Source: a virus
Virus record (IMG/VR): IMGVR_UViG_3300025789_000822
Span: 1-64,000 of that record
DNA: 64,000 nt
Reading direction: 5' to 3' (one strand)
A program made the translations under genes and the position numbers. Positions 14,144 through 61,945 of the stretch are shown here, piece after piece; position 1 is the first letter of the stretch, and each line of letters opens with the position of its first letter. Below the pieces are notes generated by a model that worked only from the letters and a program-made list of their open reading frames with translations, had not been told where the DNA came from and did no database searches.

Positions 14144-14650
14144 CTATTTCAAGAACTCTGTGATTGATAAATCATAGTGTAGACTATTTATTCTGTGTAC
14201 CTGTAACAGAAATAATACAAAACTGCTTACACTACTACCCCGGCCCACTCCCCAAACGATATTGTTCTCACGCATAGTATCTACAAGGTATTTAAGATAC
14301 TTGAGCAATACAAACATATCACGTTCTTGATATAAAAGCAACTCTTCACCTGCCCGTTGTAGTTCTGCTTCATTACTACATTGGTCTAATATGAATTTTG
14401 CAATGTCCATATTCTTGTAACTGTCTGGCATGTACCAGTTACTTCTACAACGCTCATCAAACTCTTCTAATGATTCGTCTGATAGTGTGTACTTTACAAG
14501 TTCGGGGAGATTATTTAGACTTAGTTCTGGGTCAAAACTAATATCATTGTCTACCAAAACGTTTTTTAATTGTGTTTCGGTATTAGTTAGATACAGGTCA
14601 CAGAGGTCTTGCTCTGTGTAAATTTGTTGACTAAATTTATCTGTAATCAT
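14144..14650 (-). CDS. dnaE: DNA polymerase III alpha (family C), N-terminal palm fragment
   Basis: QRAGEEL...LVDTMRENNIVWGVGRGSSVSSFVLFLLQVHRINSLHYDLSITEFLK aligns to DnaE RLETEL...[35 protein letters not shown]. Confidence 0.85.
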   Translation of the reverse strand: MITDKFSQQIYTEQDLCDLYLTNTETQLKNVLVDNDISFDPELSLNNLPELVKYTLSDESLEEFDERCRSNWYMPDSYKNMDIAKFILDQCSNEAELQRAGEELLLYQERDMFVLLKYLKYLVDTMRENNIVWGVGRGSSVSSFVLFLLQVHRINSLHYDLSITEFLK

Positions 14651-14656
14651 TCACAT

Positions 14657-14685
14657 ATGATAACAGAAATGTATGTGATTGTCAA
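14657..14685 (-). promoter_or_regulatory. sigma70-type promoter, leaderless dnaE-N transcript
   Basis: TTGACA-17 nt-TATCAT with TGn. ATG lies 6 nt after the -10. Confidence 0.75.
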
Positions 14686-14686
14686 A

Positions 14687-15256
14687 TCACTTTTTACCCT
14701 TTTTGGTCTTTTCTTTCCAAGATAGTCCAAGTTCGTTCCAATCTCTGTCGTCAAATAATTTAACTACATTGTCAGGAGATGCAGTGCATTCTTCATTAGA
14801 CAAGCATATTGTGGGTTTGCGCCACCAATGACTTTGATTTCCGGGTATGATACTTTCTGCAACTTCGGATACAGTATTATATCTAATACCTTCACTTAAA
14901 CTTGAAGTAAGAACCAAATCAGTGATTTGCAGTCTGTTTTCCATAATTGCATTTAGTTTAAGCAATAGCACCATTGCAACTATTTGGTCATATGGTTCTT
15001 CAGGGATTTCACAAACCTTTATACCTGCTGCCTTGTATTTGGTGATAGCATCAACATCATGTGTGTATACTAAAATAGAGTTTTGTAGCATTTCCATTAA
15101 GAAATATGTTGCTCTATCCATAGCAACATTTTGTTCTCTAATAGATTCGGTTTCAACCAACATACTAAGTGTTAGTTCAAATGAATTTATGTAAAAATTT
15201 CCTTCAAAATGAACTGCTGTTTGAAAATAAAAGTCTTTTTCGATTCTTGTACTCAT
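14687..15256 (-). CDS. Hypothetical protein, possible degenerate QueD/PTPS T-fold
   Basis: KDFYFQTAVH and EEPYDQIVAMVL resemble QueD KxFxFxAAH and PTxENLA. The HGH motif is absent. Confidence 0.4.
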   Translation of the reverse strand: MSTRIEKDFYFQTAVHFEGNFYINSFELTLSMLVETESIREQNVAMDRATYFLMEMLQNSILVYTHDVDAITKYKAAGIKVCEIPEEPYDQIVAMVLLLKLNAIMENRLQITDLVLTSSLSEGIRYNTVSEVAESIIPGNQSHWWRKPTICLSNEECTASPDNVVKLFDDRDWNELGLSWKEKTKKGKK

Positions 15257-15483
15257 TATGATTGAATGTTGATTTGGTTGTTTAGTTTTTGCTTTTCAAA
15301 TAATTCATCCATCTTTTTTCTATGCTGGTTTTTGTAACTTTCAATAACCATTTGTATTTGATGTATCAATGCACTGTTGCCTGTTTTATAAGCAAAATTT
15401 AATTTTTTATTTAAATCCGTAATTTTATCTTGTAACTCTTCCATAGTTTGTTCTGAAAGGTCGTTGATGAAGGGATGTTCCAT
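15256..15483 (-). CDS. Small coiled-coil hypothetical protein
   Basis: 75-aa helical ORF, coupled to its neighbour. Confidence 0.6.
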   Translation of the reverse strand: MEHPFINDLSEQTMEELQDKITDLNKKLNFAYKTGNSALIHQIQMVIESYKNQHRKKMDELFEKQKLNNQINIQS

Positions 15484-15488
15484 TTATA

Positions 15489-16808
15489 TTACCATGGTTT
15501 AACTTCGATTCGGCGCCACATATCGTCACCGACATATACTTGTGCATTTGCTGTTAATGATGTGCTATTTGCTTTGATAACAGTTTGCGTACCTGCAACA
15601 CCATTAGTTCTTGATTGACTTATTGTGATGTTTGCTGTACCTGTTGATGCACTAATAGATTTAACATAGTATGCATTACCTGCAACAATACCTGTATTTG
15701 CGGTGTCAACATTACCAGTAAAGATGATTGGTGCATTTACGACTAAACTATTAGTTGGGTTGATAGTGATGTTACCTGTAGTATACATGGCACTAACACC
15801 TGGAGTATAAACTACAGTTTCACTTGCATCATATGAACCAGTTGCCACATAAACATAATTAACAGGATTAGCATACATATTACCACTACCACCTGCTAGT
15901 GCCAAATTACTACCACCAACGGTTGATGATACAGTAAATGTGTTGCTACTTACTACGTTTCTAACATAATAGGTAGTACCAATAGTTACGTTACTATCAA
16001 TTGTTACACCAGTAAACACTACAGGCAAATCAGTAAACAATTGTGAAGTATTATCTTGTGAACTAGTAGCAAATACATTACCGGTTGAGTTAGTAGAAAC
16101 AATGTTTAATTGATTGTAACCTGGACCCACTGCAACTGCACCATTTTGATCACCTGCAACTCCAGTTGGGATAATCGTGCGTGATTGAATTTGTGTAGAT
16201 TCAAATGGTCTGTTGATTGGTGTAACTGTAATTGTGTTACCACAATCCAGTGATGAAAGCATATATGTTAATACTTGCGTATTTGCAGGAGGTGAAATGT
16301 ATGCAACATTACCGATATATGAAATATTTTCTAATAATGTTACACCAAAATTGTTGTTGCTTGATACTGCTGCATTTGGTAATGCTACTGTTGCGTTAGC
16401 ATTTGCAAATGTCAAACGTAATTGGACATTACTTTGTGTGTTAGTAGGAGCCCATCCTCCAAATTGTAATGTGACATTACCTGTAACACTACCGTACTGA
16501 ACATCACCACTAGCAACATTGACTAGTACAGTTCCTGCTAAACTATTGCCTAAATTGTAAGTAGTTGCTCTGAAACTTCTGGTACTAGCGTTACTAATCA
16601 ATGTATTAGCCATATCGTTGTTTAATACGGAGTTGGCTAGTGCAGCCTTTAATACTGCATTGTTTTGTAAATCTGTAATCTCGGTTGCTGCGATATTTAA
16701 ATCATTGGCAATTTGAGCAAAGTTATCTCTGAACCCTTGACTACTGTTATTCTGTCCGGGTACAGGGTAATTTACATTAATTCCGTTTGTGTTGATTTGG
16801 CTTGTCAT
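15489..16808 (-). CDS. Virion structural protein (baseplate/fibre-associated)
   Basis: N/T/G/V-rich. N-terminal YPVPGQNNSSQGFRDNF followed by a coiled coil. Two PVVFTG...YYV beta modules. Late promoter. Confidence 0.65.
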   Translation of the reverse strand: MTSQINTNGINVNYPVPGQNNSSQGFRDNFAQIANDLNIAATEITDLQNNAVLKAALANSVLNNDMANTLISNASTRSFRATTYNLGNSLAGTVLVNVASGDVQYGSVTGNVTLQFGGWAPTNTQSNVQLRLTFANANATVALPNAAVSSNNNFGVTLLENISYIGNVAYISPPANTQVLTYMLSSLDCGNTITVTPINRPFESTQIQSRTIIPTGVAGDQNGAVAVGPGYNQLNIVSTNSTGNVFATSSQDNTSQLFTDLPVVFTGVTIDSNVTIGTTYYVRNVVSSNTFTVSSTVGGSNLALAGGSGNMYANPVNYVYVATGSYDASETVVYTPGVSAMYTTGNITINPTNSLVVNAPIIFTGNVDTANTGIVAGNAYYVKSISASTGTANITISQSRTNGVAGTQTVIKANSTSLTANAQVYVGDDMWRRIEVKPW

Positions 16809-16831
16809 AATTTATCTATTCCGTATTGTAT

Positions 16832-19456
16832 TTAGTATTGCGTTTGATCAGGCAAAATAGTTTTTCTAGGGAACAACACATAGAAATCTTGACTGTCTAA
16901 TGGGTCTGGAGTAGGAGTTGCACTCGGCAAACCAGTCCAAGCAGGTGGGCTAGAATTATTGTCATAATTGTACGTAATACTCTTGTTGACTGTAAATCTA
17001 TCAATTTTAAAATTAATAGAGTTGAGTGATTGTTTTTGTCCAATTGGATTCAACCAGTTATTGTTAATCTGGTATTGTATGTATTGTGCATACGTTACTA
17101 TATCTGTCACAGAACCATCGGGAAGCGTGATTGGTTCAGGCAATGTAACCGTGCCCGGCTGCGTATAACAGATAACCCAAGCAGGAGTATATCCTAGTGT
17201 GCTACCGTTAACTTGTTGACTGGTCATCCATAATGGTAACAACTTGCTGTCATACACTTGCCCTAATACTTGTCCAACTCTGTTACGCATATTAGGTAAA
17301 CTATTTGGATATAGTGTTCTAGCATCACCCGGAGTCAAACTTGTATAGAATTGTTGACCTGATGGGCTAATTTCATAACTAGTAAAGATATTAGTTTCAC
17401 TAACATACCAGGGACCCAAATCTAATGGAATAAATGTTGGCCAATATATTGATTGCGGTACACTTGCTCCATAGATATTTGCAGTATTAGGATATTGTTC
17501 ACCCAAATTTAATAAGTTATCAACAACTTCACTATACACTACTTCGTATATAACATCACCTGTTGTTTCATCAATAGCTTGGGCAACTTTGATGGCGCCT
17601 AAAGTGATATTTCTCCAATAATGATTTTGTGTAACTGCGGCTACATATTGTTCAAAGTCACTGGCATTAATACCATAGGCATGTTCATAGACAACACTTG
17701 TTGCTAATCCAAAATAAGGATCATCTGCACGATACAGATATTCAGGTGGAATCAATGTTGTATTAGTTAGTAAAGTATTAAGTAGATTTCTATCACTTAA
17801 ACTAGGGTTACATGCAATATAAAGAGTATCAGTTGGTTGCTGATATTCTTGATATACTTCTACTGTAAACGTTTGTGTGCTTTGTACTACTGGAAATAGT
17901 GGACTATATGCTTCTACACTAAAAGTAAATTGAGTAGTATTTCCTGCAGTTAATATTGCATCAGTTGGTTGAAATGCAACTACACCTGATAACTCTCCGC
18001 TCGGTAATAATAATAAGTTAGGTGGTAGTGTGCCACTTACCAATCTATATTCTAATGCAACATCTGATTGTGCTAGTACACTTAATATACTAGTACTACC
18101 ATTATAAATTTGTCCTAAATCATTAGGTGTTACCCATGTAATATCACCATTGATTGCATTTTCTACTACAAATGAGAAGTTAAAGAATGGGGTAAAGATA
18201 GTTGGGTTTATTGATTTATATACTTGAACACTAAAACTAAATTGCGAAATACTATCAGGTGAAATTACAGGGGTACCTGTTATCCATCCTGTGTTTCTAT
18301 CACCTACTAATCCTAACGGTAAATTAGCATAGTTGTATGTTAATCCAGTACCATCAAAATCATGACCTATTACCTTAAAGGCAAAGAATGTATTACTATT
18401 GACAGTTCCAATGTTAGCATTTACTGTTGGGCTATATGTTGCACCTGTAACCAATGAGCCAGGTGGTAGTACAAAATACCCATAGTCAACTGTGTCAGGT
18501 GTTATATTATATGTTGATGGTCTAGTGTTGTATATGGTAGGTATTCTAGTATTCGAAGGCAGTCCAGGACCACCTTGACTAATAGGGGTGTTTTGATTGA
18601 TAACAGTTATACTATATGATTGCAAATCATTACCTAAACTACTACTCAATTTAAGTGTAAATGCGTATGTTTCGATTGTTGGTTGACCTACAGAAACGTT
18701 TGGTAATGTAATGGTCATATAACCTGCTGCATTGCTTAATGTATAAATTGGTCCACCTATTGTTGTAGAAATAGTAAATGTAGTAGCATCAATAATTGAG
18801 TTTATATAGTATTGTTGTCCTGCAGTAATGCCACCAAAAACAGTTCCTGTGAAGTTTACAGGTCTACCAACACTAAATCCTGTTGTACTCAAACATGATA
18901 TTGTGTTTGAAGTTTGTGTTGTTGCTACACCTGATGTTACTACCAATGGCAAATTAACACTAGATATAGGAGGCTCTGCGTATCCTCTGATCAATCCGTT
19001 ATTATTAATTTCTAATCCCGGAGGTAGTTGACCTTGAATAACTCTGATAATAACTTCATTAGTTGCTATAGGATTTGTATACTGTATAGGCAAACTTACC
19101 CAGGTGCTATCATATGTGCTTAGTATTGTGCCAGTTGGTGTAGTAAACTGGGGAAGGGCTGCACCACTAGTTGTTAAACTAAATGTTCTGTCTCTGATAT
19201 TTCCTAAATTATCTGTTGCCCTAATAGCAAATGTATATGTAGTAGAATTGGTTACTAATCCCGGTGATCCTGATAATAAGCCTATACCATCATTAGATGT
19301 CAATGTTACACCTGGGGGTAAACTACCGCTTAATAATGTGTAGTTTATTGATGATGCTGGTAATACTGCATTAGCAATTAATGTTGCAGTAAAAGGAACC
19401 TGACTAGGATATGTTCCTATAGTCCCGGCAGGTGTAATCCAAATTGGTTGTGCCAT
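16832..19456 (-). CDS. Baseplate protein with multiple putative Ig (He_PIG-like) domains
   Basis: Repeated GSLPPG/GQLPPGL/LPLGL/GTLPPNL...G.I.G.P units typical of Ig/cadherin-like repeats. Confidence 0.65.
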   Translation of the reverse strand: MAQPIWITPAGTIGTYPSQVPFTATLIANAVLPASSINYTLLSGSLPPGVTLTSNDGIGLLSGSPGLVTNSTTYTFAIRATDNLGNIRDRTFSLTTSGAALPQFTTPTGTILSTYDSTWVSLPIQYTNPIATNEVIIRVIQGQLPPGLEINNNGLIRGYAEPPISSVNLPLVVTSGVATTQTSNTISCLSTTGFSVGRPVNFTGTVFGGITAGQQYYINSIIDATTFTISTTIGGPIYTLSNAAGYMTITLPNVSVGQPTIETYAFTLKLSSSLGNDLQSYSITVINQNTPISQGGPGLPSNTRIPTIYNTRPSTYNITPDTVDYGYFVLPPGSLVTGATYSPTVNANIGTVNSNTFFAFKVIGHDFDGTGLTYNYANLPLGLVGDRNTGWITGTPVISPDSISQFSFSVQVYKSINPTIFTPFFNFSFVVENAINGDITWVTPNDLGQIYNGSTSILSVLAQSDVALEYRLVSGTLPPNLLLLPSGELSGVVAFQPTDAILTAGNTTQFTFSVEAYSPLFPVVQSTQTFTVEVYQEYQQPTDTLYIACNPSLSDRNLLNTLLTNTTLIPPEYLYRADDPYFGLATSVVYEHAYGINASDFEQYVAAVTQNHYWRNITLGAIKVAQAIDETTGDVIYEVVYSEVVDNLLNLGEQYPNTANIYGASVPQSIYWPTFIPLDLGPWYVSETNIFTSYEISPSGQQFYTSLTPGDARTLYPNSLPNMRNRVGQVLGQVYDSKLLPLWMTSQQVNGSTLGYTPAWVICYTQPGTVTLPEPITLPDGSVTDIVTYAQYIQYQINNNWLNPIGQKQSLNSINFKIDRFTVNKSITYNYDNNSSPPAWTGLPSATPTPDPLDSQDFYVLFPRKTILPDQTQY

Positions 19457-19458
19457 TA

Positions 19459-20079
19459 TTATCCTTGCAATGCTTGTAATACTAATTGATAGTTACGTTG
19501 TCTTTCTTCAATGCCAATTGTTCCACCATTGATACGTTTTGTTAACATAACAAAATCACCACTGTCACAATATTGATTCAAGTTATTATTGTCCCAAAAC
19601 CATCCTGCACTTGCTGTAGCACCTTCAGGTGTTTCCATATATGCAACTGTTTCTTCAATTCCCAAACCCAATGCTTGTGCAAATTTTGTATAGTTAATAC
19701 GACCTGTCAATTGAATTAATCCACGACCACAGAAACGATATCCATCACCACTGTCTTCATCTCCATTTCCCATGCGATTTGCATAAACACGATTGGCAAT
19801 TCTTTCAGGTTGTCTTGCATATTGACTTGCGGTTTCTTGATCTGGAAAATACTTGTGAAAAGTGGTCATTAAACCTTTGTCACTATAGTTTAGATTTTCT
19901 TTGATAAAATTAAAACCACCTGACTCATGTCCTGTTTGTGCAACAAAACCTGCTACTCTATGAATATTATCAAACATATCATAGTATTGTGCTACTGTGT
20001 TTAATGGTTCTAAATATTTTTCTAACACATCATGGTGTGATTTAGGGAAAACTTGAGATAGTAAATCTAGTGTGATCAT
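19459..20079 (-). CDS. GH19 (chitinase-like) lysozyme/endolysin
   Basis: AQTGHESGGF, ENLNYS, YANRMGNGDEDSGDG, GRGLIQLTGR.NY, TKRINGG. Confidence 0.92.
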   Translation of the reverse strand: MITLDLLSQVFPKSHHDVLEKYLEPLNTVAQYYDMFDNIHRVAGFVAQTGHESGGFNFIKENLNYSDKGLMTTFHKYFPDQETASQYARQPERIANRVYANRMGNGDEDSGDGYRFCGRGLIQLTGRINYTKFAQALGLGIEETVAYMETPEGATASAGWFWDNNNLNQYCDSGDFVMLTKRINGGTIGIEERQRNYQLVLQALQG

Positions 20080-20095
20080 TGTTATATTCCTTTTA

Positions 20096-23000
20096 TTATG
20101 AGTAAGTTGCGCTTACTGTGTACCACTGAGTTGTAGTAGGTGCAATAAACTGTAATGTTGCACCGTTGCCTGGCATAGTAAATGCGGCATTTGTTGATAA
20201 ACTATTAATTGCACCACCTGATCCAGGGTACACGTTTAATGTGTTAGCACTTGTATTTGTAATATAAATTACAGCTCCGGCAACTGCGGGTAATTGAACG
20301 CCGTTCGCACCTGATGCTACTGTACTTACAACGTTAATTTCTTTAGTTAATGCTGTTGCAGTACCCTGTGTTGATCCTGCGGCTGATATTGATGTACCAA
20401 TTGAACGAATATGATATGAAGTGGCTACTAAATTAGCACCACTAATGTTACCACTTGCTGATACAGAAGAGAATGTTCCACTTACGTTAGCCGCATTGAT
20501 TGTAGCAGTTGTTTGTAAATAACCTGCTGCTGCGGTACCACCTAAATACAACGCATTATTTGCTGTTGCTACCGTTCCTGACACGTTAGCTCCGGCTACC
20601 GAGTTAGCAGTTGTGGCATAAGCAACAGCACCTGTTACGTTTGCCCCTGTGATTGCTGTTAATCCACTACCTGTGCCATTTGTCAATAGATAACTTGCTG
20701 CCGCAGTACCACCCAAATATGCTGAGTTATTTGCACTTGCTACTGTACCTGATACATTAGCACCGGCTACTGAGTTAGCGGTTGCGGCAAAATTTACTTG
20801 ACCACTTACATTGGCTCCTGCCACTGCATTCGCAGTAGTTGCATATGTAGCAAGATTTACTGCACCACTTACATTAGCGCCCGCTACTGAGTTAGCAGTA
20901 GTTGCATAAGCAACAGCACCCGTAACGTTGGCTCCGGCAACTGAGTTTGCAGTCGTTGCGTATGCAACTGCACCACTTACGTTAGCACCTGCAACTGCAT
21001 TAGCAGTAGTTGCATATGTAGCAAGACCAACTGCACCGGTAACATTTGAACCAGCTACTGAGTTTGCTGTTGTTGCATATGCGACTGCACCACTTACGTT
21101 AGCTCCAGCAACTGCATTAGCCGTAGTTGCATAAGCAACAGCACCAGTAACATTGGCTCCGGCTACTGAGTTTGCAGTACCTGCTGTTACAGCATAAGTT
21201 GCATTAGCCACTGTACCTGATATATTACTAGCTTGGATATTACTTAAATTATTACCACTACCAATAAAATAGTTTGCACTTACTGCATTACCACCTGATA
21301 CGTTGGCAGCATTGATGTTACCCTGTACAATTAAACTTGTTAGTGTACCAACACTTGTAATATTGGGCTGTGCATTAGTTGTTACTGTGCCTGCTGTAGT
21401 TGCGGCGCCACTTAGTGCACCTACAAATGTAGTAGCAGTCAATGAACCATTTGCTAAATTACCACTAATACTTGAGTTTACATAGTTTTGTGAATTACCA
21501 TTTGATGCTGATGTTACAAATGTAGGATATACTGATGTTGCACTTGATGTATTAGTTTGTATACCGACAGCATTAGTAGCAAAAGCCGCATTCGCAACAG
21601 TACCTGTTACGTTTGCACCCGGCAATGCTGTTAAGTTTGCTCCGCTACCTGCAAAATAATTTGCGCTTACTAAATTACCACCCGAGATATTACCTGCATT
21701 GATATTGCCAGTAACAATTAAACTTGTTAATGTACCAACACTTGTAATATTAGGCTGCGCATTTGTTGTTAATGTACCAGTAAAATAATTAGCAGTAACT
21801 AGATTGCCACCCGCAACGTTAGCTGCTGAAACATTCCCCGATACAGTCAATAGATTACTGGTTTTGTTGAATGTAAGTCCCGCTTGAGCCGCAAAACTAC
21901 CTGAATCATTAAATAATACCTGTGTATTTGAACCAGGCGCTGTTGTTAGTGATGTTGCATTGATCCAACTTAGATTTCCTGAACCATTTGTTACTAAGAA
22001 ATAACCACTACTACCACCGGTGATGATTACGTTACCAACTGGTCCTAGGTTACTAACACCATTAACATTTAATCCTGTTAATGTTCCAAGACTTGTGATA
22101 TTTGGTTGACTTGCTGTGTTTACTGTGCCAATCAAATTACCAACAAATGTGTTAGCAATAACATTACTACTTGTAACTTGTAATACATTTCCTGTACCAG
22201 CCACGTTAACGTTGAAATTACCATTGGTATCTAATGACGCTTTGCTTGTACCGTTTAAGATGTAAGAACCGGCTGCAACAGAGATGTTGGTAATGTTACT
22301 ACCATCACCGTATAAGTATTCACCTTTTACTATACCTGAGTTAGAATAAACGTTACCTGATATTGTATTACCAGTAACGGTCAATGATGTTAATGTGCCT
22401 ACACTAGTGATATTGGGTTGTGCATTAGTATACACCGTTCCTGATACCACTGCGTTATTTACCGGACTTGTTACATTTCCACCTGCCACTGCAAAAGCAA
22501 CATTTGCGGTGTTAGCATTTGGAACTGTACCGAATACGTTGGCCCCGGGTATATAACTTAAATTATAAGCGTTTGCATAGATATATCCTGCTCCATAATA
22601 TCCTGGATATCCAAGTTGTAGGGCACCGACATAAAGAGTATTAGTTGTTAAATCCATATTCGGTAAACCTGAACCTGAACCCACAAGCAATGAATTGTAT
22701 CCACCGGATGCATTATTTGGATCTATACCGACAAGACTTACATTATTTGATGTATTATTACTAATTATTCTGGCATACGTAGAATTAGTAGCATTTGCTA
22801 CAGTACCGCTTACGTTACCACCTGCCACATGATTAGCTACATTAGCAAAATTTACTTGTCCTGTTACGTTAGCACCTGCTACTGAGTTCGCAGTTGTTGC
22901 ATAAGCGACAGCACCACTTACGTTTGCACCAGCTACATTATTTGCTACGTTAGCATAATTAACTTGTCCAGTTACATTAGCACCTGCTAAGTTTGTTAAT

Positions 23001-52368: not shown

Positions 52369-52378
52369 GTATTATGGA

Positions 52379-52714
52379 TTATTTGTTTAGCGCATTTTGC
52401 GCCATTTGAGCAACGACTTTCTTTTGGTCGTCAGCTTGAGCAGGTTCAGCGTTTGGTGATTCAGGCTGACCTTTGAATGTGATTTTATCACCTTGTATGT
52501 TAGTGATAACTGATTTTAGTGGGGGAACCTTAATCATGTTGTACAAGTCATTCTTGTCAAGGATAAGGTTATATTTTTGGAAATAGTTCAATAGGTCATC
52601 TACGGAAAAATCAGGGGGAATTTCTCCCTGATCTAATCCTTGTTGTAGTTGTCGTGTTAGTGCTACAAGTTTTGTAACAGTAGCACTATCCTGATCGAAC
52701 TCAAATAATCGCAT
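52379..52714 (-). CDS. Probable head-internal protein
   Basis: MRLFE^F N-terminus. Confidence 0.5.
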   Translation of the reverse strand: MRLFEFDQDSATVTKLVALTRQLQQGLDQGEIPPDFSVDDLLNYFQKYNLILDKNDLYNMIKVPPLKSVITNIQGDKITFKGQPESPNAEPAQADDQKKVVAQMAQNALNK

Positions 52715-52716
52715 GA

Positions 52717-53409: not shown

Positions 53410-53439
53410 GGTTGTTATTCCGTGTTGATTATATATTTA

Positions 53440-53931
53440 TCACAATTTCTTAAAACTCGGGGTTTTGTCAAACTTACGATTTTGAATATATCTTGATTTA
53501 TTTATGAAGGTTTGTAACTCTTCCGTAAGTAATCGTTTTTTTCGTGAATCTTCTTCCCATTTAATGGTATAAATTAGTTTGGACTCAGCATTTTTTGCTT
53601 TTTTTGCTAGTTTTTTATGTATTTGAATGTTCAAATCATTACTAGATAATTTTAAATCTAATTCTAATACTTTGCCGGCTTCTCTGTAATATCGGTCATT
53701 GTCTAATGTACACCAAACCACTGCATTTTTTATAGAAAAGAATTCATATTGTTGGTCATAAGGTTTAATAAAAGTCACCAAAAAGCCACTTTGAGTTTTA
53801 GTGATTTTATATTTGCTAAACAATTCATATGAACCGTCATCTACTGGAATAACTATAACATCTTTTAAGTCATCAGGTATAAGTTGTTTATTAATAAACT
53901 GATCTATCTTTAATTTCTTTACATTCTTCAT
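53440..53931 (-). CDS. Hypothetical protein
   Basis: 163-aa ORF coupled (ATGA) to the upstream gene. Confidence 0.6.
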   Translation of the reverse strand: MKNVKKLKIDQFINKQLIPDDLKDVIVIPVDDGSYELFSKYKITKTQSGFLVTFIKPYDQQYEFFSIKNAVVWCTLDNDRYYREAGKVLELDLKLSSNDLNIQIHKKLAKKAKNAESKLIYTIKWEEDSRKKRLLTEELQTFINKSRYIQNRKFDKTPSFKKL

Positions 53932-54371
53932 AGTACCTCAAAATGAATGTTTTTAAGTTCCGGTGTTATGTCTAAAAATGCAGGAGTTACATCATATTGA
54001 CCTTTGCATTTAATCATCGGTACACCTTCACAGTCTGTGTATAATGCCCCTAGGGGAATTATTCCGTTCTCAAATACGCTTGGATGTTGAATTTCAAATT
54101 CAAACTTCCAAACTGAGTATTTCTTATCTTCTTCTTGTTCATAAAAGAAACCAAATTGATCAAATTCATCAAAACGTATTTCTGTTTTATAAGGTACTTT
54201 AACTACTTCAGGTTGACTACGTAGTGATATTACTTGTAGTATGGTGTCATAGTTACATTGTGTATTTCTATCATGTATCCATGATTCTACGTTGTCGCCC
54301 ACAGGCTTAGACCTGTTCATTACTCCTGTTTGAGTAATATCAAAAAGCGTATAACAACATATGCGGTACAT
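53928..54371 (-). CDS. Hypothetical protein (late, leaderless)
   Basis: Start probably ATG 54371 (MYRICCY), 5 nt after TAAATA. Confidence 0.6.
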   Translation of the reverse strand: MYRICCYTLFDITQTGVMNRSKPVGDNVESWIHDRNTQCNYDTILQVISLRSQPEVVKVPYKTEIRFDEFDQFGFFYEQEEDKKYSVWKFEFEIQHPSVFENGIIPLGALYTDCEGVPMIKCKGQYDVTPAFLDITPELKNIHFEVL

Positions 54372-54389
54372 AATGTTATTTAGAGCCAT

Positions 54390-54425
54390 AAAAAAACCCG
54401 AGAATTTAATCTCGGGTTAGTTTTT
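54390..54425 (-). terminator. Rho-independent terminator
   Basis: AACCCGAGA-atttaa-TCTCGGGTT with flanking A/T tracts. Confidence 0.82.
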
Positions 54426-54440
54426 AGTTACAAACTAAAA

Positions 54441-54857
54441 TTAAGCGCCGTAAACTGTAGTGAACGTAGCTGCGTTTGTACCAGTTGTTGTGTTAGCAAC
54501 TGAAGCTGAAGTCAAAGCTGCATTAACAGCAGCAACAACGTTGGCACCAGCTGAACCGTCTACTGACCAAGCACCTGTTGGATATGTTGCGAATGCAAAT
54601 GTATCTGAAGTTGTGTTTGTATATTCGTAGATATAGATTGTTGCCAATTGTTGAACTGTTTCAATGATAACGTTAGCTTGTGTAGCACTGAAGTGTGTAC
54701 CTGAAGCGGCCGTAATTGTCATGAAGTCTAGTTTTGGACCTTGTGGTTGAACAACGTAACCAGAATCGATTGCGTTAACACCTGGGTTTGTGTAACCAGG
54801 GTAGTCTAAGTTGAATACTGGATAGAAGTCACCGTTCGTGCGTGTAAATTGTGCCAT
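54441..54857 (-). CDS. Small, probably abundant structural protein
   Basis: Monocistronic: own late promoter, 5' hairpin TGAAGC/GCTTCA, AAGGA SD and terminator. A/T/N-rich. Confidence 0.55.
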   Translation of the reverse strand: MAQFTRTNGDFYPVFNLDYPGYTNPGVNAIDSGYVVQPQGPKLDFMTITAASGTHFSATQANVIIETVQQLATIYIYEYTNTTSDTFAFATYPTGAWSVDGSAGANVVAAVNAALTSASVANTTTGTNAATFTTVYGA

Positions 54858-54940
54858 TTTTGAAAATTCCTTAATGTTTGTTGAAGCCTACTGCTTCATA
54901 CATTTATTTATGCCTGGCACAAAAAAATGATGGTTTTGGA

Positions 54941-56098
54941 TTATCTTCCGGCTAGATTTTGACGACTAAAGCCCATTCTATCTACGAACTTAAGACCGTT
55001 TGCAACGAAACCTTCTTGAGTTTCAGTACCGTCTTGTAAGAATCCTTTAACAGGGCTAGACTTTGCTGCATGGTCTAATTGTTTCACTACATCCATTTTT
55101 AGATTATAGATAGCAACCCAAATCTTAAATGCACCCATGACACCTTGTTTGTTAACCTTAAGGTGTTCCATGATCTTTTCTTTCATCTTATCTGTCATGG
55201 GTCTTGATTCTACATATTCTATAAAACCATTGTATAGATTACTTAAGTTACCTGATACAATACGTTTGTTAATATACGTAGTAAATAGTTGGTTGAATGT
55301 ATTACGTGCTTGTGGGGCAGTATTCATTAAGTCTTTTACTGCGGCACCATATGTGTTTAGTTCTTTGATGGCAGTGTTCTTTAATTTGTCATTGATTCCC
55401 AAGTTAGGCGTGATTGGCATTTTACTTGGAATAATAGCAACATTACTATTGTTCTTTAAGTTACCAATGCTACCGTCAAGACTTGATGCTTCATCAGTAG
55501 TAATTGCATTTGCAGGAATAAATTGGTGAACTGCAATTCCTGCATCTTTTCCAGCAATTAATTTTCCAACTTCACTGTTTGCATTTACCGCATAAGCAAT
55601 ACCATTTGGATTTGCTTTGAATCTATAAACGCCCTTGTCATCTTTCAATGGCTTGCTGAATAACAAATCACCCCAGTAATAACCATTGCCACCGCGATCT
55701 GCTTGTTCTAATCCAGGCCAAATAGTAGAAATTAATCCATATAAATCGCCGCGGTTAACCCCTCTGGCTGCATCATATTGTACAAACTCTTCTGGACTGA
55801 ATACTTGGCGGCCCGAACCGTCTTTCTTGTTGAACATATGTTTGTCCATGATACTAAATTTACCATTGGGGCCACGACCAAAAATCAATGCAGGATAACC
55901 ATCCCACTTAATAGTAATTGCGTTTGGATTACTTACAGTTCTTTCAATGGCATCAATTGCTTGTCTAGCACCTTCTTCATCATTCAAGAATACTAAATCC
56001 TCAGGATGGTCTAAGTGGCCTTTAGCCTCTTTAATAACTACACGGTCAATATTGTCTAATTGACTTTTTAGTTTCGCCAATGATTCTGATAAGTTCAT
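54941..56098 (-). CDS. KxDG-motif ligase/nucleotidyltransferase-fold protein (DUF6267-like)
   Basis: HLDHPEDL, TIKWDGYPALIFG, YWGDLLF, PN.I.Y, QEGFV, KFVDR..FS..N. Confidence 0.6.
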   Translation of the reverse strand: MNLSESLAKLKSQLDNIDRVVIKEAKGHLDHPEDLVFLNDEEGARQAIDAIERTVSNPNAITIKWDGYPALIFGRGPNGKFSIMDKHMFNKKDGSGRQVFSPEEFVQYDAARGVNRGDLYGLISTIWPGLEQADRGGNGYYWGDLLFSKPLKDDKGVYRFKANPNGIAYAVNANSEVGKLIAGKDAGIAVHQFIPANAITTDEASSLDGSIGNLKNNSNVAIIPSKMPITPNLGINDKLKNTAIKELNTYGAAVKDLMNTAPQARNTFNQLFTTYINKRIVSGNLSNLYNGFIEYVESRPMTDKMKEKIMEHLKVNKQGVMGAFKIWVAIYNLKMDVVKQLDHAAKSSPVKGFLQDGTETQEGFVANGLKFVDRMGFSRQNLAGR

Positions 56099-57438
56099 AC
56101 TGCTCTGCGAATCTTACGTTTTGATTCAGCTACCTTAAGATTTGGAGTTTTAGCTTGTGGTTCTGCCTGCGGATTATTTGTTGCCTGATTGCCGGCCGCT
56201 ACCTTAGGAGGTTCTGCATTGGGTGCTTTTGCTACTTGCAACGATTTAACTAATTGATTATATGCTTCAACATCAAGTTGTGACAACTGTTTTAGTTGTT
56301 TTTTAATTTCAGATGCTAATTGAAAACTATTTGACTGACCACCTGCTTGTGCTCCTGCTTGTGCTCCTGCTTGTGCACCTGTTTGAGTGGTAGACTGTGA
56401 TTGAGCAGTGGGTTGTGCCTGCGTAGTTTGTTGACCTTGTTGTGTGCCAGGGGCTTGTGATTGAGATTGACCTTTGGCTGCATTTCCACCTGCTTGTTGT
56501 ACCGCATAAGCAATACCAGCTAGGGTGTTCAATGCGGCTTGTGCAGACTTACCTACTTTGTTTCCGTCTTGCGCAATAGCTTTATCGAGTTGATTAATTG
56601 CATTGTTTACATCTTGTTCTTCATCTCCGTAACCAACATTGCCCATGAAGTTTTTAAACCATTCTTGCATATATTGACCAACTGTTTTACCCTCAGTGAT
56701 CATACTTTCAAAAATATTGTTTAATTTCAAATACTTAGTTTCAGCAATATAATAAGTTTTTCCTTCTTTGAGAACACCTAGTCCTAATTGTTTCCATGTA
56801 ATACCAACAGACTCAAGTAGTTTATTGATAAAATAGATTCTCCAGGCTTCGCTCATAGTCTGTCCTGCTTTTATACGATTAATAGCACTATTTGCAAAGT
56901 TAGGATCAGGATTACCCTTCTTGATAATCTGTTGAACTGTTGCTACACCATTTTCCCACTCAGGATATCCCTTACGATCTGCCATGTAGTTGACTAATTC
57001 TTTAGTCAAGGCCATTTTTTGATTCTTATCTTGTGTAGCATTAATTGCTTTAGCCGCACCCTGAATATATGAGTTCATATTCTGAGTAGTTTGAACTTGT
57101 TGATTATACTTGCCAACAGCCTTACTTGTATCTGGTTTAGCTTTAACTGCTGTTGGTTGAGGCGCAGTTGCCGGTGCCCCTGGTTGATTTGGTTCAGGAG
57201 TTACAGTACTAGGGTTAACTTGAGTTGCTCCGGCACCTGATGCGCCACCGGGAGTAATCAATCCACTGTTGATACCTGTATTCAATGCATTGGCTGCATT
57301 GGCTACAAAGTTTTTCATAAAGATGTCTTGGGCTCTATTTGATTGTTTTGTTTGAGGATCAGCAAATGCACCCTTAACTTTACCGGCTAGATCACCGAAA
57401 AAACCTTCTTCAATATCTTTAAATTCATTTAGTTTCAT
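56095..57438 (-). CDS. Probable head-internal protein
   Basis: MKLNE^F...IEE^G, with LLE/LKE/IFE/ITE/VAE sites and Q/A-rich linkers. Confidence 0.55.
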   Translation of the reverse strand: MKLNEFKDIEEGFFGDLAGKVKGAFADPQTKQSNRAQDIFMKNFVANAANALNTGINSGLITPGGASGAGATQVNPSTVTPEPNQPGAPATAPQPTAVKAKPDTSKAVGKYNQQVQTTQNMNSYIQGAAKAINATQDKNQKMALTKELVNYMADRKGYPEWENGVATVQQIIKKGNPDPNFANSAINRIKAGQTMSEAWRIYFINKLLESVGITWKQLGLGVLKEGKTYYIAETKYLKLNNIFESMITEGKTVGQYMQEWFKNFMGNVGYGDEEQDVNNAINQLDKAIAQDGNKVGKSAQAALNTLAGIAYAVQQAGGNAAKGQSQSQAPGTQQGQQTTQAQPTAQSQSTTQTGAQAGAQAGAQAGGQSNSFQLASEIKKQLKQLSQLDVEAYNQLVKSLQVAKAPNAEPPKVAAGNQATNNPQAEPQAKTPNLKVAESKRKIRRAV

Positions 57439-57673
57439 CTTTTTTCCTCAAAGTCTTTGCAAATCTTGCTTGATCCTTGCCCTTGATAGCACTTATAAGT
57501 TTTTTCTCTAAAAGTTCAGCCTTTTCAGGAGAATAATGACGGCTCATTAATTCAATTAGATTGATAGCACTAGTGATAATGTTAGAGGCTCGGGATTCGA
57601 TGACATGATTAATGTCACGTTTTTCCCCAATCGATTGTAATTCTTCTAAGAGGCTCTTGGTCTTTTTTTGCAT
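57425..57673 (-). CDS. Hypothetical protein
   Basis: 82-aa ORF after the late promoter at 57693-57698. Confidence 0.6.
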   Translation of the reverse strand: MQKKTKSLLEELQSIGEKRDINHVIESRASNIITSAINLIELMSRHYSPEKAELLEKKLISAIKGKDQARFAKTLRKKDETK

Positions 57674-57713
57674 AGCATAGGATCCTATAGTGTATTTAGT
57701 CTAAATGACAAAT

Positions 57714-59117
57714 TTATTTCTTAAGTGAGTTTAGCAACATTTTGAGTTTTGCACTCTGTACATCTGCAACCACACGTTTTTCTTCAGGTTCTACAGTATC
57801 ATGCACTGCTTGATTTACTGATCCTACTTGACTTGTTGTTTTGATCCTATTTAAAATTTCATTAGATGAAGGTTGTTCTCTAGTTTGTTCCGAGTCACTA
57901 TCACTAATACGCATAGTTTCGATATTGTAATCCAAATCAATCTTTTGACCAACACCCGTTGAACTACGACTTTTCATACATTGAATCTGATACTTACCAC
58001 GCTCACGCATACTACGGCTTGTAAAAATACCAAACACATAGTCAGCAGTATTAATCTTACTAATACCACCTGCAATGTGACTATGATCAAACTCGATTTC
58101 TTCCACAGCACTACGATTTAACTGACTTGCAGTAATCATTAATAATCCAAGTTCTTTTGCTAGATTACGTAATTCTTCAGCCACATACTTGTCCTTAACG
58201 AACTGATCAGTTGGGCTGACTTTAACACTAACCGGCATAACCAAGTCCAAATAGTCAATCATAACAAAGTCAACTTTAATACCTGTTTGAATCTGTACTT
58301 CTTTTAAGTATGCACGAATATCGTTGACGTTGCTTTGCGCAGGCAATGATTTAACACGATATTTACCTGCTCTGCTACCATGCATCTTGACTTTGATAGT
58401 TGCATCGTCAATGTCTTTGCGAATGTCTTTTGTGCCCATGTTAGTCAACATCGCATCAGTACGCAAACTAGTAAGTTCTTCACTCAATTCAAGTGTGACA
58501 TAAACACCACTTAATCCTTGTTGCAACCAGTTCAATGCACTATTCATCATGACTAATGATTTACCTGATCCTGAGCCACCTGCAAAGATGTTTAATTCAC
58601 CTCTACTCATGCCACCATACATAATACGATCAAGTTGTGGCCAGCCAGTACTTACTTGACCACCTTGATTGAAATAACGATTCAATCGATCCTTGGGGTC
58701 AGCAAAGTAATCAGTACCCATGTCACGTTGCAAACTGATTTGTACAGCATCTTTGATTAGTTTTTCAACTGGATCAAAGTCACCCTTCTCCAACATGTCT
58801 GCTGCCTTGAGAATAGCACGTTCAAGTTCTTGGCGCTTTGTGAATTGTTCAAATTCTTCTAAGAACCAATCATAATGCCCACTGTCTAGTTCTGCAACTG
58901 TGTCAATTTCTACCCCAGTCGTTGCTTTAATCTGCGTAGGATCGGGAATAACATTATATTTCTTGCTATGTTCAACAATAAATTCTGCGACCGGGCGCAA
59001 TCTACGGTCAAAGTTTTCTGGATTTATAATGTTGATGACACGTGTATACAATTCTGCGTTCGTAACCATCATGCGCAAAAACAATGTTTGCACATCTGTG
59101 TTATAATCTTTTATCAA
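57714..59117 (-). CDS. Replicative DNA helicase (DnaB/gp41-like)
   Basis: STGW..LD, GGSGSGKS, VYVTLELSE, IDYLDL, TASQLNR, KSR. Confidence 0.92.
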   Translation of the reverse strand: MIKDYNTDVQTLFLRMMVTNAELYTRVINIINPENFDRRLRPVAEFIVEHSKKYNVIPDPTQIKATTGVEIDTVAELDSGHYDWFLEEFEQFTKRQELERAILKAADMLEKGDFDPVEKLIKDAVQISLQRDMGTDYFADPKDRLNRYFNQGGQVSTGWPQLDRIMYGGMSRGELNIFAGGSGSGKSLVMMNSALNWLQQGLSGVYVTLELSEELTSLRTDAMLTNMGTKDIRKDIDDATIKVKMHGSRAGKYRVKSLPAQSNVNDIRAYLKEVQIQTGIKVDFVMIDYLDLVMPVSVKVSPTDQFVKDKYVAEELRNLAKELGLLMITASQLNRSAVEEIEFDHSHIAGGISKINTADYVFGIFTSRSMRERGKYQIQCMKSRSSTGVGQKIDLDYNIETMRISDSDSEQTREQPSSNEILNRIKTTSQVGSVNQAVHDTVEPEEKRVVADVQSAKLKMLLNSLKK

Positions 59118-60072
59118 GTTTTCTCCTACTCATCTCTACTTTAATTTTACTAGTAGTTGCGTTTTGCAATATACTTAGTAGTGTTGGCAATCTACCATAT
59201 TTAACCACAGCATCGTTAACGTCTTTGATATTGTCAGCCCAATCAGGAATACTAACAAAAAATCCCAAGTCTAATGCTCTATCACATATCTCTAAACCAG
59301 GCTTATCATGATCAGGCACTACAATGATTTTTCTGTTAAGGCTTCTCAATATCTGTACCTGATCGTCATTGATTGCGTTGTGTGTTAGTGCACAGCCATT
59401 GATACTAAGTGCATCAAAAATACCTTCTACTACAATACAAACTTCCCATTCAGGTTTTTGAAAGTCATAACCAAACACATATCCCGATTGTTGTTCATTG
59501 ATAAACTTAGGCTTTCTGTCGTCTAAGAATCTACTAGTATGTCCTACAATCTTGTTGTTATGTGTAAAGGGGATAATAATACGATTATTATATCTTCCTT
59601 CAGCGTCAGGTGTTACCATAAAGGGATAATCTGTTGGTTGCACCCCACGTTTTTTCAAGTAGTCTGTATATACCTTATGTCTGTGATTATTAGCATCAAC
59701 CAGTTCAGCATCAGGTAGTTCCATTTCTTTGAACTTAACCCTGCTTTTTATTTTTTTAACTTGTATAAGGTCCAATACATCTTTGTTTTGCAGGCTTTCT
59801 AAATTCCAACGATTGATTTGGTTGTCATCTATCCCACACCAAGACAAAAATTGTCGTGTGTTCTTTGTTAGGCTTTTGCCCAATGAGAAACCACATTTGA
59901 AGTTACAATTGAAACAATGAAATGACCAATTAGTTCCATCTGATTTGATACCACCGCGCATACGACGGTCAACTGAATGCCCACGATTGTGGCAGCATGG
60001 TGCATTAAAACTATGCCAGCCACTTTGTGTTAATTTTTTCTTACCCGGAATGACCGTTAGGATATCAAACAT
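59101..60072 (-). CDS. DNA primase (gp61/DnaG-like)
   Basis: Zn domain (PCC...FHCFNC), YLKKRG, RIIIPF, TOPRIM motifs VEGIFDA and PDHDKPG, KDVND. Confidence 0.9.
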   Translation of the reverse strand: MFDILTVIPGKKKLTQSGWHSFNAPCCHNRGHSVDRRMRGGIKSDGTNWSFHCFNCNFKCGFSLGKSLTKNTRQFLSWCGIDDNQINRWNLESLQNKDVLDLIQVKKIKSRVKFKEMELPDAELVDANNHRHKVYTDYLKKRGVQPTDYPFMVTPDAEGRYNNRIIIPFTHNNKIVGHTSRFLDDRKPKFINEQQSGYVFGYDFQKPEWEVCIVVEGIFDALSINGCALTHNAINDDQVQILRSLNRKIIVVPDHDKPGLEICDRALDLGFFVSIPDWADNIKDVNDAVVKYGRLPTLLSILQNATTSKIKVEMSRRKLDKRL

Positions 60073-60078
60073 ATTGAT

Positions 60079-60106
60079 ATTGTAACATAACTGTAGGAAT
60101 AATCAA
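60079..60106 (-). promoter_or_regulatory. sigma70-type promoter, leaderless primase-helicase transcript
   Basis: TTGATT-16 nt-TACAAT with TGn. ATG lies 6 nt after the -10. Confidence 0.65.
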
Positions 60107-60120
60107 GTAATAAGGTAGAA

Positions 60121-60921
60121 TTATCTTGATAATACGTTGGTAACTTCGCCGCCGTTGCTATTGAACTGAACTCTAACAAATGGATGGAATCCTTTTACTA
60201 CATACCCATAAGTGCTACTATCGTTGCTGTAGTTTGCGCTGGCTAATATAGGATACCAATCTGTGTCTACTTGGGTAGAACCTTGAATAATGATGTTACC
60301 AGTATACTCACGCAGTTGTGTTTGGATAGTCAATACTGGATTATTGTCTGTACTGATAACGCTGGTATAATATGATGTGTTATTGCTTGTGCTATAAGGT
60401 TGATCATTGGCGTTGAATTGATATGTCAAGTTAGGGAATGGTTGACCTGTTGGAATTGATACATTTGCTGATGGTACAAACTTAGGTTTAATACTATCAA
60501 CAATATATAGATCCCCACGACCTCCCTGGTTTTGATCTACATACACAGGATAATTAAATGCACCAACAGGAATCTCTAATGTATAGTAGCATTTCTGTGC
60601 ACTAATACCAAACAATTCAGCAGGAGTAGTTTGTAATACCATGATTCCATTTGCAGGAAATACAGGTACCAAATAAGTTTGTAATAATGTTACTGAACCA
60701 GTAATGTCAATTGCTCTAAAAGTAATATTTGCTCCGGTTACATCCACTGGTTTTTGTTCTTGATTTAAGAATTGAAATTGAAGTTGATTATCAACACCTC
60801 TGTTAAGAGTAATTGGTCTAGAATATTGTGGCATATAATTCCTTGGCGAGTTACCTGATAGGAGTACAACTATCTGACGCGGTGTATAATAGAAAACTTG
60901 AGTTGAAAATGATGATAACAC
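60121..60921 (-). CDS. Virion structural protein (BppU-N-like beta domain)
   Basis: RGVDNQLQFQF.NQEQKPVDVTG..ITF, late promoter. Confidence 0.5.
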   Translation of the reverse strand: MLSSFSTQVFYYTPRQIVVLLSGNSPRNYMPQYSRPITLNRGVDNQLQFQFLNQEQKPVDVTGANITFRAIDITGSVTLLQTYLVPVFPANGIMVLQTTPAELFGISAQKCYYTLEIPVGAFNYPVYVDQNQGGRGDLYIVDSIKPKFVPSANVSIPTGQPFPNLTYQFNANDQPYSTSNNTSYYTSVISTDNNPVLTIQTQLREYTGNIIIQGSTQVDTDWYPILASANYSNDSSTYGYVVKGFHPFVRVQFNSNGGEVTNVLSR

Positions 60922-61011
60922 GCAAACATTGCTCCTTTGATGTATTTAGTCAAACTAAATATGAAAATATTAAGTATGGGTTTATCCGATTAAATAATAC
61001 AGAATAACAAT

Positions 61012-61389
61012 ATGAATCAAGATTTTTTCAAAAAACTAACTGAAAATCACCCTTTCATCACTATTTGTTCTTATGCCAATCAAGATTATGTTGGTATAAT
61101 TCAAAACCGTGATGACCTCGTGACCACAATGTATGACTATGGTTCTATTGTAGAATCTGACCTAAGAGCAAAGTTCTTAGAACTAGGAGATATTTGGTGG
61201 TGGGAAAGTAACAGAGCAATACCCATCAACTTGTTTCTTAGAACCGAGTGGATTGTATTCAAGCCCTATATTAGAACATTCAGCAACAAGAGTTTGAATA
61301 TCATTCATGGCCCTGTTGTTAGTATGACAGACTTCGCCAAGCGCAGGGGCAAGCGCAAATCAATTACACTTGTAAAGAAGATTCCTTAA
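61012..61389 (+). CDS. Hypothetical protein
   Basis: 125-aa ORF (WWWESNR.IPINLFL) after TAAATA at 60991-60996. Confidence 0.7.
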   Translation: MNQDFFKKLTENHPFITICSYANQDYVGIIQNRDDLVTTMYDYGSIVESDLRAKFLELGDIWWWESNRAIPINLFLRTEWIVFKPYIRTFSNKSLNIIHGPVVSMTDFAKRRGKRKSITLVKKIP

Positions 61390-61945
61390 GCAGATTCATA
61401 TGCACGACAACTAATTGTGCATAGGCAATCGCATGACTTTTTTTGAAACTATATCCAGTGTGATCCTTTTCCCACACACTTTCATTCACTTCTTTCCAAC
61501 TCTTACCGACCAAATGACGTTTAGCGGGTCTGATAACTGCTAAGAACATAGCAAGTCTTGGGATACTATTCACTGGTTCAGGCATCTTTTTAAGTGTGTC
61601 ATATTGCTGACCCAAGTGAATTAGTTTTTCAACGGTGTCCTTGTCATTTAACATTGACCAATCAGGCTCGCCCATCAACTCAATCAAATGTAATTCATCA
61701 CGTACTTGATTGTATATATGAACATTCAATAAGTCTAACTTAAAGTATCCACGTTTTTCTGCATCGGCGTAGTGCAAACTAGACATTTGATGTACAGGAT
61801 CGTATGGTATTTCTGTAACATAGACACCAGTGGGATGTTTACGGATAGGCGTTACATTACGCATACTTGCAGGGGTATGCTTAATCAATGATAAAATTTT
61901 ATCACGGTCACCTAAATCAATATCTACATCACTATCAATTATCAT
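61364..61945 (-). CDS. dnaE: DNA polymerase III alpha (family C), miniaturised catalytic palm/fingers fragment
   Basis: DSDVDID (PDxDxD), KHPTGV (HAxGV), GYFKLDLL (KxDxL), FLAVIRP (LxRPG), GYSFKKSHAIAY (GYxFNKSHxxAY). Confidence 0.88.
   Translation of the reverse strand: MIIDSDVDIDLGDRDKILSLIKHTPASMRNVTPIRKHPTGVYVTEIPYDPVHQMSSLHYADAEKRGYFKLDLLNVHIYNQVRDELHLIELMGEPDWSMLNDKDTVEKLIHLGQQYDTLKKMPEPVNSIPRLAMFLAVIRPAKRHLVGKSWKEVNESVWEKDHTGYSFKKSHAIAYAQLVVVHMNLLKESSLQV

Follow-up and report, generated by a model that had tools for sequence, protein, structure and literature searches.

A Predicted Minimal Split DNA Polymerase III Alpha from Two Distant Genes of an Uncultured Freshwater Giant Phage

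Introduction

C-family DNA polymerases that arise from two distant genes are known from cyanobacteria, where the two DnaE halves (DnaE-n and DnaE-c) carry the pieces of a split intein and are ligated into full-length DnaE by trans-splicing. DnaE of the Bacillus subtilis type is a full-length, clamp-binding polymerase that acts as a primer-extending helper of PolC. A further arrangement, a minimal split form of DNA polymerase III alpha (Pol III alpha), was described from sequence in the “group 2.2” jumbo phages by Iyer, Anantharaman, Krishnan, Burroughs and Aravind (Viruses 13:63, PMC7824862, section 3.4.1 and Fig. 3b; Iyer et al., 2021), who proposed a role in the synthesis of one strand or in repair; genome papers that appeared before had annotated one of the halves as “Pol III alpha”. 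The present analysis concerns a pair of this kind in the window, that is, the 64,000-nucleotide (nt) stretch formed by positions 1 to 64,000 of the IMG/VR virus record IMGVR_UViG_3300025789_000822. The gene for the N half (14144..14650, minus strand) encodes 168 amino acids (aa) and that for the C half (61364..61945, minus strand) 193 aa, with 46,713 bp between them and the C-half gene as the upstream one of the two. The two genes probably encode the two halves of a minimal split Pol III alpha that exists beside a T4-type family B replisome and associates as a template-directed accessory polymerase of ~360 aa. An earlier note, made from the letters of the window, had reported both open reading frames (ORFs) at exactly these positions; the novelty that it implied does not hold, since the split enzyme had already been described in 2021.

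To judge from the available passages of Iyer et al. (2021), the pair in the window shares with the described family its organization as two stand-alone proteins, the N-terminal part for NTP binding and the C-terminal part for the binding of Mg2+ and template, the large distance between the genes and the lack, within the two proteins, of the other Pol III domains. The described family accompanies a T4-like replisome that has a family B polymerase; the window shows a clamp loader, a primase and a DnaB-type helicase. The PHROG families and the named relatives (Rak2-like phages, PA5oct, Atu_ph07, XacN1 and SCTP-2) are also the same, and nothing essential differs, the window copy being that of an uncultured freshwater phage. 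By its sequence features, the pair is a member of the split minimal Pol III alpha family of group 2.2 jumbo phages. The same passages make no mention of single-chain fusions or their derived position, of a conserved glutamate at the position of Escherichia coli R390, of a positionally conserved sigma-70-like promoter on the N half only, or of the clade-specific adjacency of an exonuclease to the C half, and it is these four points that, measured against those passages, are new here. The record from which the window was taken is 88 kb long and was judged to be 23% complete, so that the complete phage genome probably comprises 300-400 kb. Near-identical DNA was found across many freshwater metagenome runs, and the source is an uncultured freshwater giant phage.

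Sequence and Predicted Structure of the Two Halves

The N half corresponds to the first, nucleotide-binding part of the Pol beta-like palm. Pfam family PF07733 (DNA_pol3_alpha) matches its residues 92-167 above the curated cut-off (E 4.2e-9), the PHROG “DNA polymerase” family phrog_11127 matches it with an E of 8.6e-39, and phmmer aligns residues 122-167 to residues 347-392 of E. coli DnaE, ending at the FERFL motif. The motif LQRAGEEL (aa 97-104) is followed by MRENNIVWGVGRGSSV (aa 126-141), which includes the GS motif GRGS (aa 136-139; 14234..14245, minus strand) that corresponds to R362-G363-S364 of E. coli in a HMMER alignment to 2hnh. The C-terminal ITEFLK (aa 163-168; 14147..14164, minus strand) is equivalent to FERFL 388-392, with Glu165 replacing R390. 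The N-terminal ~90 residues are too short for a PHP domain, which takes up ~270 aa in E. coli, and the Pfam scan of both halves gave no PHP match; the part of the fusion model (see below) that is equivalent to these residues has a predicted local distance difference test (pLDDT) score of 50-80.

The C half contains the metal-binding palm strands and a reduced finger with the template and base-pair pocket (all positions that follow are on the minus strand). Its N-terminus, MIIDSDVDID, provides D6, D8 and D10. The segment DSDVDID (aa 4-10; 61916..61936) aligns with E. coli 399-418, pairing D6 and D8 with the catalytic D401 and D403, and D10 with D405. Further downstream follow HPTGV (aa 37-41), FKLDLL (aa 68-73; 61727..61744; aligned to 539-641), in which K69 is the equivalent of K553 and D71 that of the third catalytic aspartate D555, and IRPAK (aa 138-142; 61520..61534), whose R139-P140 correspond to R639-P640, a contact of the templating nucleotide. 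Finally, GYSFKKSHAIAY (aa 164-175; 61421..61456; aligned to 739-769) corresponds to the E. coli helix-loop-helix G753-YGFNKSH-760 of the nascent base-pair pocket. The C half alone has no Pfam match, and the PHROG “DNA polymerase” family phrog_11778 matches it with an E of 3e-57. Searched against the whole PDB, a profile built from 92 relatives with 30-90% identity (alignment A2) gives nine matches, all of them Pol III alpha (E 7e-5 to 2e-3), and aligns with E. coli DnaE in three collinear blocks, namely residues 2-19 to 399-418 (MPDFDVDF), 53-138 to 539-641 (KFD to FRPG) and 149-178 to 739-769 (GYGFNKSH). According to this profile alignment, the thumb region (E. coli ~419-538) has shrunk to ~33 residues and the index-finger region (~642-738) to ~10. 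The C half stops ~20 residues past the KSH motif, the HhH, clamp-binding, OB and tau-binding C-terminal parts are missing, and there is no HHH_6 match. The AlphaFold2 model of the C half has a pLDDT of 95.1 and a predicted template modeling (pTM) score of 0.89, and the top 13 chains found with it by Foldseek are all Pol III alpha. VIA-align superposes residues 1-192 of the model on residues 459-841 of the Taq enzyme (Z 9.3, root mean square deviation (rmsd) 4.1, 189 residues aligned), on residues 398-781 of the E. coli enzyme (Z 8.6) and on PolC (Z 6.7), the best unrelated chain reaching 3.7. The palm motifs that the earlier note had read in the two ORFs could be located residue by residue in the order it had given, and its view that the thumb and most of the fingers were lost, along with the PHP, clamp-binding, OB and C-terminal domains, agrees with these alignments.

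In the ternary complex of E. coli Pol III, R362-G363-S364, D401/D403, Y754/F756/N757/H760, R390, R709, K714 and K715 lie within 4 Å of dGTP, R639-P640-G641 and G753 contact the templating base, and K553 contacts the primer's final phosphate; the K553A variant is dead, and R390A loses 27-fold in efficiency (preprint 10.64898/2026.06.29.735100). The conserved phage residues correspond to residues on this list of dGTP, primer and template contacts. D6, D8, K69, D71, R139 and P140 are invariant in the 92 C-half sequences, which includes the three catalytic aspartates that had been noted as kept. Conservation of at least 90% is seen for D10, K168 and H171 in the same set, for Y165 among 61 closer C-half relatives and for GRGS in 81 N-half relatives. 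Like DnaE and PolC (E. coli 2HNH/5FKV, Thermus aquaticus 3E0D, Mycobacterium tuberculosis 5LEW and Geobacillus kaustophilus PolC 3F2B), the phage pair has a Pol beta-like palm with a GS loop, a DxD...KxD metal and primer site, an RP(G) template contact and a YxFNKSH pocket, in the same order and the same three-dimensional arrangement. Unlike these enzymes, it consists of ~360 aa in two chains rather than 1160 aa in one and lacks the PHP domain, thumb, index finger, HhH, clamp motif, OB and tau-binding domain. The sequences suggest that the phage family retains the chemistry of a C-family polymerase together with its contacts to template and primer; the nucleotide-clamping finger and the thumb are not retained.

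Natural Single-Chain Fusions and the Assembled Palm

When 1.8 billion representatives were scanned in full by HMMER with the C half as query, one 375-aa protein emerged, in which residues 190-371 match the C half and residues 74-180 the N half (38% identity, E 2e-15); at the junction, IKEFIK is followed by a linker of nine residues and then by ADFDID. In all, three such fusions were found in separate ENA and Logan assemblies (P0286, P0391 and P0392; 375-376 aa, 78-81% identical), and their differences are spread across both parts and the linker, indicating that the fusion is a real, evolving gene. In the tree of C halves, which was midpoint-rooted without an outgroup, the fusion clade is placed 16 nodes deep within a well-supported (0.988) clade of stand-alone C halves, so that the fusion looks secondary to the split form. 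No fusion was found in the scan of IMG/VR; in the JGI metagenomes, the matches were limited to a stand-alone C half and two loci with the junction between the N part and DxD, one of which, L150, is an ordinary bacterial dnaE of 1160 aa.

The AlphaFold2 model of one fusion has a pLDDT of 87.4 and a pTM of 0.86. In the underlying alignment (A3), for which local MAFFT trials allowed only ~13 or fewer C halves, the last ~9 residues of the stand-alone N halves are misplaced, and the linker region, with a pLDDT of 63, should not be over-read. With the fusion model, Foldseek found DnaE and PolC only (19 chains, E 1.9e-8 to 7.7e-4). Superposed as one body, the model reaches a VIA Z of 21.7 with DnaE1 of M. 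tuberculosis (332 residues aligned, rmsd 4.2), 20.3 with the Taq ternary complex, 17.9 with PolC and 15.4 with the E. coli enzyme. After these, the Z drops to ~3 for Pol beta-like nucleotidyltransferases (MenT, Cid1, Pol beta and GLD-2), whose matches cover residues ~102-279 of the model, which are drawn from both halves. Both the fusions themselves, as a Rosetta-stone argument, and the modeled structure suggest that the two halves build a single palm. The earlier note had held that failure to predict a reconstituted palm would speak against a two-chain enzyme, and the natural 375-aa fusion does model as one DnaE-like palm.

The Break Point and the Persistence of Both Genes

The break falls between the FERFL equivalent (ITEFLK) and the DxDxD strand, within the active site of the palm. 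The N half ends one residue past the FERFL equivalent, and the C half begins three residues ahead of the DxD motif; as the end of the former maps to E. coli residue 392 and the start of the latter to residue 399, only about six DnaE residues (NPERVS) are missing. The pair resembles the cyanobacterial DnaE halves in that a C-family polymerase is derived from two distant genes. In cyanobacteria, however, the break lies elsewhere in the protein, whereas here it cuts the palm active site, no intein is present and the product is presumably a non-covalent pair.

Superficially, each ORF is a stand-alone piece of DnaE, and cyanobacteria possess an intein-split dnaE, as paper titles also state, which would fit two exteins joined post-translationally by a split intein or, alternatively, decaying fragments of a once full-length dnaE. 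Both explanations are refuted by the results that follow, which leave next to no probability to either. Neither half has a Pfam match to a Hint or intein domain at E up to 1, the termini abut the FERFL and DxD motifs and therefore have no room for intein halves, and the natural fusion needs just its nine-residue linker. Decay is countered by the median pairwise ratio of non-synonymous to synonymous substitution rates (dN/dS) among IMG/VR relatives: 263 N-half pairs with dS 0.05-1.5 yield 0.17, and 104 C-half pairs yield 0.11. The lengths are also constant, at 167-178 aa for the N half (7997 homologous clusters) and 188-198 aa for the C half, over the ~8000 clusters at 90% identity that the metagenome protein collection holds for each half. 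Moreover, the synteny is conserved, and the complete genomes of PA5oct and Atu_ph07 contain no PHP, no HhH_6 and no finger domain besides the C half itself. A split without an intein and two intact genes had been read in the earlier note; purifying selection, the absence of pieces of a decayed dnaE elsewhere and the co-occurrence of the halves, which it had set as tests, are borne out by the relatives.

In isolated phages, tblastn returns 92 records for the N half, the weaker query, and 96 for the C half, and the genus counts of the two sets match. Co-occurrence is judged from these counts and not from a full list of accessions. Isolates with both halves are Rak2-, PA5oct- and Atu_ph07-like jumbo phages, and tblastn also matches SCTP-2 and XacN1; in addition, a 333-kb and a 361-kb contig each hold both halves. 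The distance between the halves is ~44 kb in PA5oct, where the pair is EST35_0288 and EST35_0220, and ~182 kb in Atu_ph07, and the proteins of the window are 38-51% identical to those of the isolates.

Several other genes of this phage group deserve mention. Family B polymerase (PolB) genes are present in the complete genomes of PA5oct and Atu_ph07, where PolB also occupies more than one open frame (825 + 379 aa in PA5oct, 578 + 418 aa in Atu_ph07), so that the main replicase of this group seems to be split too. In Atu_ph07 (NC_042013.1), the RefSeq coding sequence of the C half (gp074, locus 4067-4561) begins at an internal methionine of an open frame that starts at locus 3986 (MKNIPDIDIDF..., 3986-4561), and the annotated protein therefore lacks two catalytic aspartates. 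Two proteins of 540-551 aa (P0404 and P0405) combine PHP with the N part of DNA_pol3_alpha, and the N half also matches near the ends of the ~460-aa PHROG families phrog_13169 and phrog_7513; these may represent other phage DnaE genes that end near the FERFL/DxD point with the PHP domain retained.

Neighboring Genes and Transcription

Downstream of the N half, a small ORF is followed by the gene for a Cpn10-like co-chaperonin (13412..13771, minus strand; Pfam), present in 70/70 related loci, and by that for a gp44/RFC-type clamp loader (12487..13410, minus strand; Pfam), present in 52/61; the same order is seen in PA5oct and Atu_ph07. Directly upstream of the N half lies a 189-aa ORF (14687..15256, minus strand) with no family match, which is weakly similar (pairwise E 4e-6) to the PA5oct gene EST35_0287 at the same position, is detectable in 35 of 77 related loci and may be a fast-evolving conserved neighbor.

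The 3' end of the C half is overlapped by 26 nt by a convergent 125-aa ORF (61012..61389, plus strand; phrog_11637, E 1.7e-29), whose opposite-strand arrangement is also found in PA5oct (EST35_0221) and Atu_ph07 (gp073). Beyond it are the genes for a DnaG-type primase (59101..60072, minus strand; Pfam) and a DnaB-type helicase (57714..59117, minus strand; Pfam). The order of C half, convergent small ORF and primase recurs in PA5oct and Atu_ph07 (tblastn), both of which have a virion or structural protein annotated between the small ORF and the primase; the primase is followed by an annotated primase/helicase in Atu_ph07 and by an unnamed ORF of similar size in PA5oct.

On its other side, the C half belongs to a gene string that is headed by a 160-aa PhyH-like protein of the 2OG-Fe(II) dioxygenase family (63462..63944, minus strand) and contains an Rv2179c-like 3'-5' exonuclease (62625..63185, minus strand; Pfam PF16473, E 1.3e-33). 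Of 49 related IMG/VR loci, 47 have the exonuclease gene as the immediate upstream neighbor of the C half (median gap 17 nt). The exonuclease is not adjacent to the C half in PA5oct or Atu_ph07, which rules out the adjacency as a deep trait of the family and shows it to be clade-specific; a role of the exonuclease as the proofreading partner of the split enzyme is therefore put forward only as a hypothesis. In the window, the two are separated by a 228-aa gene (61942..62628, minus strand), the stop of which overlaps the C-half start (ATGA). This gene has no Pfam or PHROG match, and its N-terminal VFGDSYA resembles the first block of SGNH/GDSL hydrolases. Because it occurs in only 1 of 51 related loci, it represents a recent insertion between exonuclease and C half and was rejected as a conserved partner of the latter.

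The 36-nt gap before the N-half start accommodates a candidate sigma-70-like promoter (14657..14685, minus strand; TTGACA-17-TGnTATCAT), in which TTGACA-17-TATCAT agrees with the consensus at 11 of 12 positions and is accompanied by a TG extension. Of 79 related N-half loci, 43 have the pattern TTGAC[AT]-N16-18-TAnnnT within 90 nt upstream of the start, the 12 examples listed having it at -34/-35; none of 57 C-half loci has such a site. The C half is the last gene of its tightly packed string, with its ATG overlapping the stop of the upstream gene. Thus arranged, the halves appear to be transcribed differently, the N half from its own sigma-70-like promoter and the C half within an operon. The main text of the PA5oct omics paper gives no gene-level timing for the genes of the two halves.

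Possible Function of the Split Enzyme

By homology, the N half supplies the opening part of a nucleotidyltransferase palm of the Pol beta-like kind, including the GRGS loop that holds the sugar and phosphates of the incoming nucleotide. The C half adds the two strands with the metal-binding D6, D8 and D71 and the primer-phosphate lysine K69, as well as the template contact R139-P140 and the Y-x-F-K-K-S-H helix-loop-helix, which roofs the nascent base pair. Since neither half holds a complete active site, the two proteins would have to associate non-covalently, giving a two-protein module of ~360 aa as the counterpart of the rare 375-aa single-chain fusions. The likeliest activity of such a module would be template-directed primer extension as an accessory polymerase of the phage replisome, for example taking over from the neighboring primase, serving one strand or acting in repair, with the adjacent 3'-5' exonuclease as a possible proofreader. 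A helper role beside the main replicase and next to the primase is considered the most likely one; it would parallel that of B. subtilis DnaE, itself a C-family enzyme beside a main replicase and next to the primase, the analogy being functional only.

Several observations weigh against this proposal. As the earlier note had cautioned, the arginine of FERFL is a glutamate (Glu165) and the NPER arginine has no counterpart: Glu165 is at least 90% conserved in 81 relatives and also occurs in each of the three fusions, R396 has no equivalent, and R709, K714 and K715 fall within the deleted index-finger segment, so that several of the basic residues that hold the deoxynucleoside triphosphate (dNTP) in E. 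coli, and are otherwise found in DnaE and PolC, are absent from the phage family. K142, directly after the RP motif, is family-specific and nearly invariant and might, speculatively, compensate for these losses. The lack of a thumb and of a clamp-binding motif makes processive synthesis doubtful. Furthermore, the assembled model is that of a natural fusion with 38% identity and not of the window's own pair, PolB was not found in the 88-kb record, the coexistence with PolB being deduced from relatives (at 23% completeness its non-detection is uninformative), and a literature search found no biochemical or interaction data for any member of the family. Taken together, the residue pattern seems most compatible with a distributive, template-directed primer extender, with a specialized nucleotidyltransferase as the alternative.

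In that alternative, the halves would also assemble, and the product would be a Pol beta-fold nucleotidyltransferase that is not a template-directed DNA polymerase, such as a terminal or tailing transferase, an enzyme that synthesizes or modifies primers, or one that makes a nucleotide signal or a modified DNA end. The glutamate in place of R390, the loss of R396 and of the whole index finger that closes on the dNTP, the missing thumb and the complete PolB already present in the phage family would all fit such an enzyme, and the only structural neighbors outside DnaE are template-independent (Cid1, GLD-2, MenT and CCA-adding enzymes), at low Z scores of 2-3. However, the best-conserved positions of the C half are those that contact the templating base (R639-P640), the primer phosphate (K553) and the base pair (Y754, F756 and H760), which a template-independent enzyme would have no reason to keep, the Z scores are 15-22 for C-family polymerases against ~3 for other nucleotidyltransferases, and the conserved neighbors are replisome genes. 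This alternative is accordingly given a minor share of the probability. Far less probable is that the halves are catalytically dead relics that the replisome retains in a structural or regulatory capacity, or that would act as decoys for the partners of host Pol III. Here, the extreme domain loss and the disappearance of several basic dNTP-binding residues can be adduced, as can the fact that activity has never been demonstrated for any member; yet the three metal-binding aspartates, the lysine and GRGS show little or no variation over thousands of clusters and 30-90% identity, which is the pattern of an active site, and the partner-binding domains of DnaE (PHP for epsilon, the clamp motif and the tau-binding C-terminus) are precisely those that are missing.

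A more far-reaching version of the accessory-polymerase proposal can be advanced only tentatively, and the balance of probability is against it in full: the pair and the 375-aa form may be active template-directed DNA polymerases, by far the smallest of the C family, the separate transcription of the halves, one from an early sigma-70-type promoter and the other within the exonuclease operon, may control their assembly, and the enzyme may act in primer extension or in the hand-off from the primase to the family B replicase. The family is very abundant, with its thousands of metagenomic clusters per half, yet the literature search found no bench test, and the single-chain fusions offer an easy construct for expression and assay. 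If the pair is active, a two-chain module of ~360 residues would be a minimal working core of the bacterial replicase family, this core would tolerate a break through its active site, and the T4-like replisomes of jumbo phages would possess a second polymerase. Should it indeed be an active template-directed polymerase, it would make the functional requirements of the ancestral bacterial Pol III core accessible to experiment.

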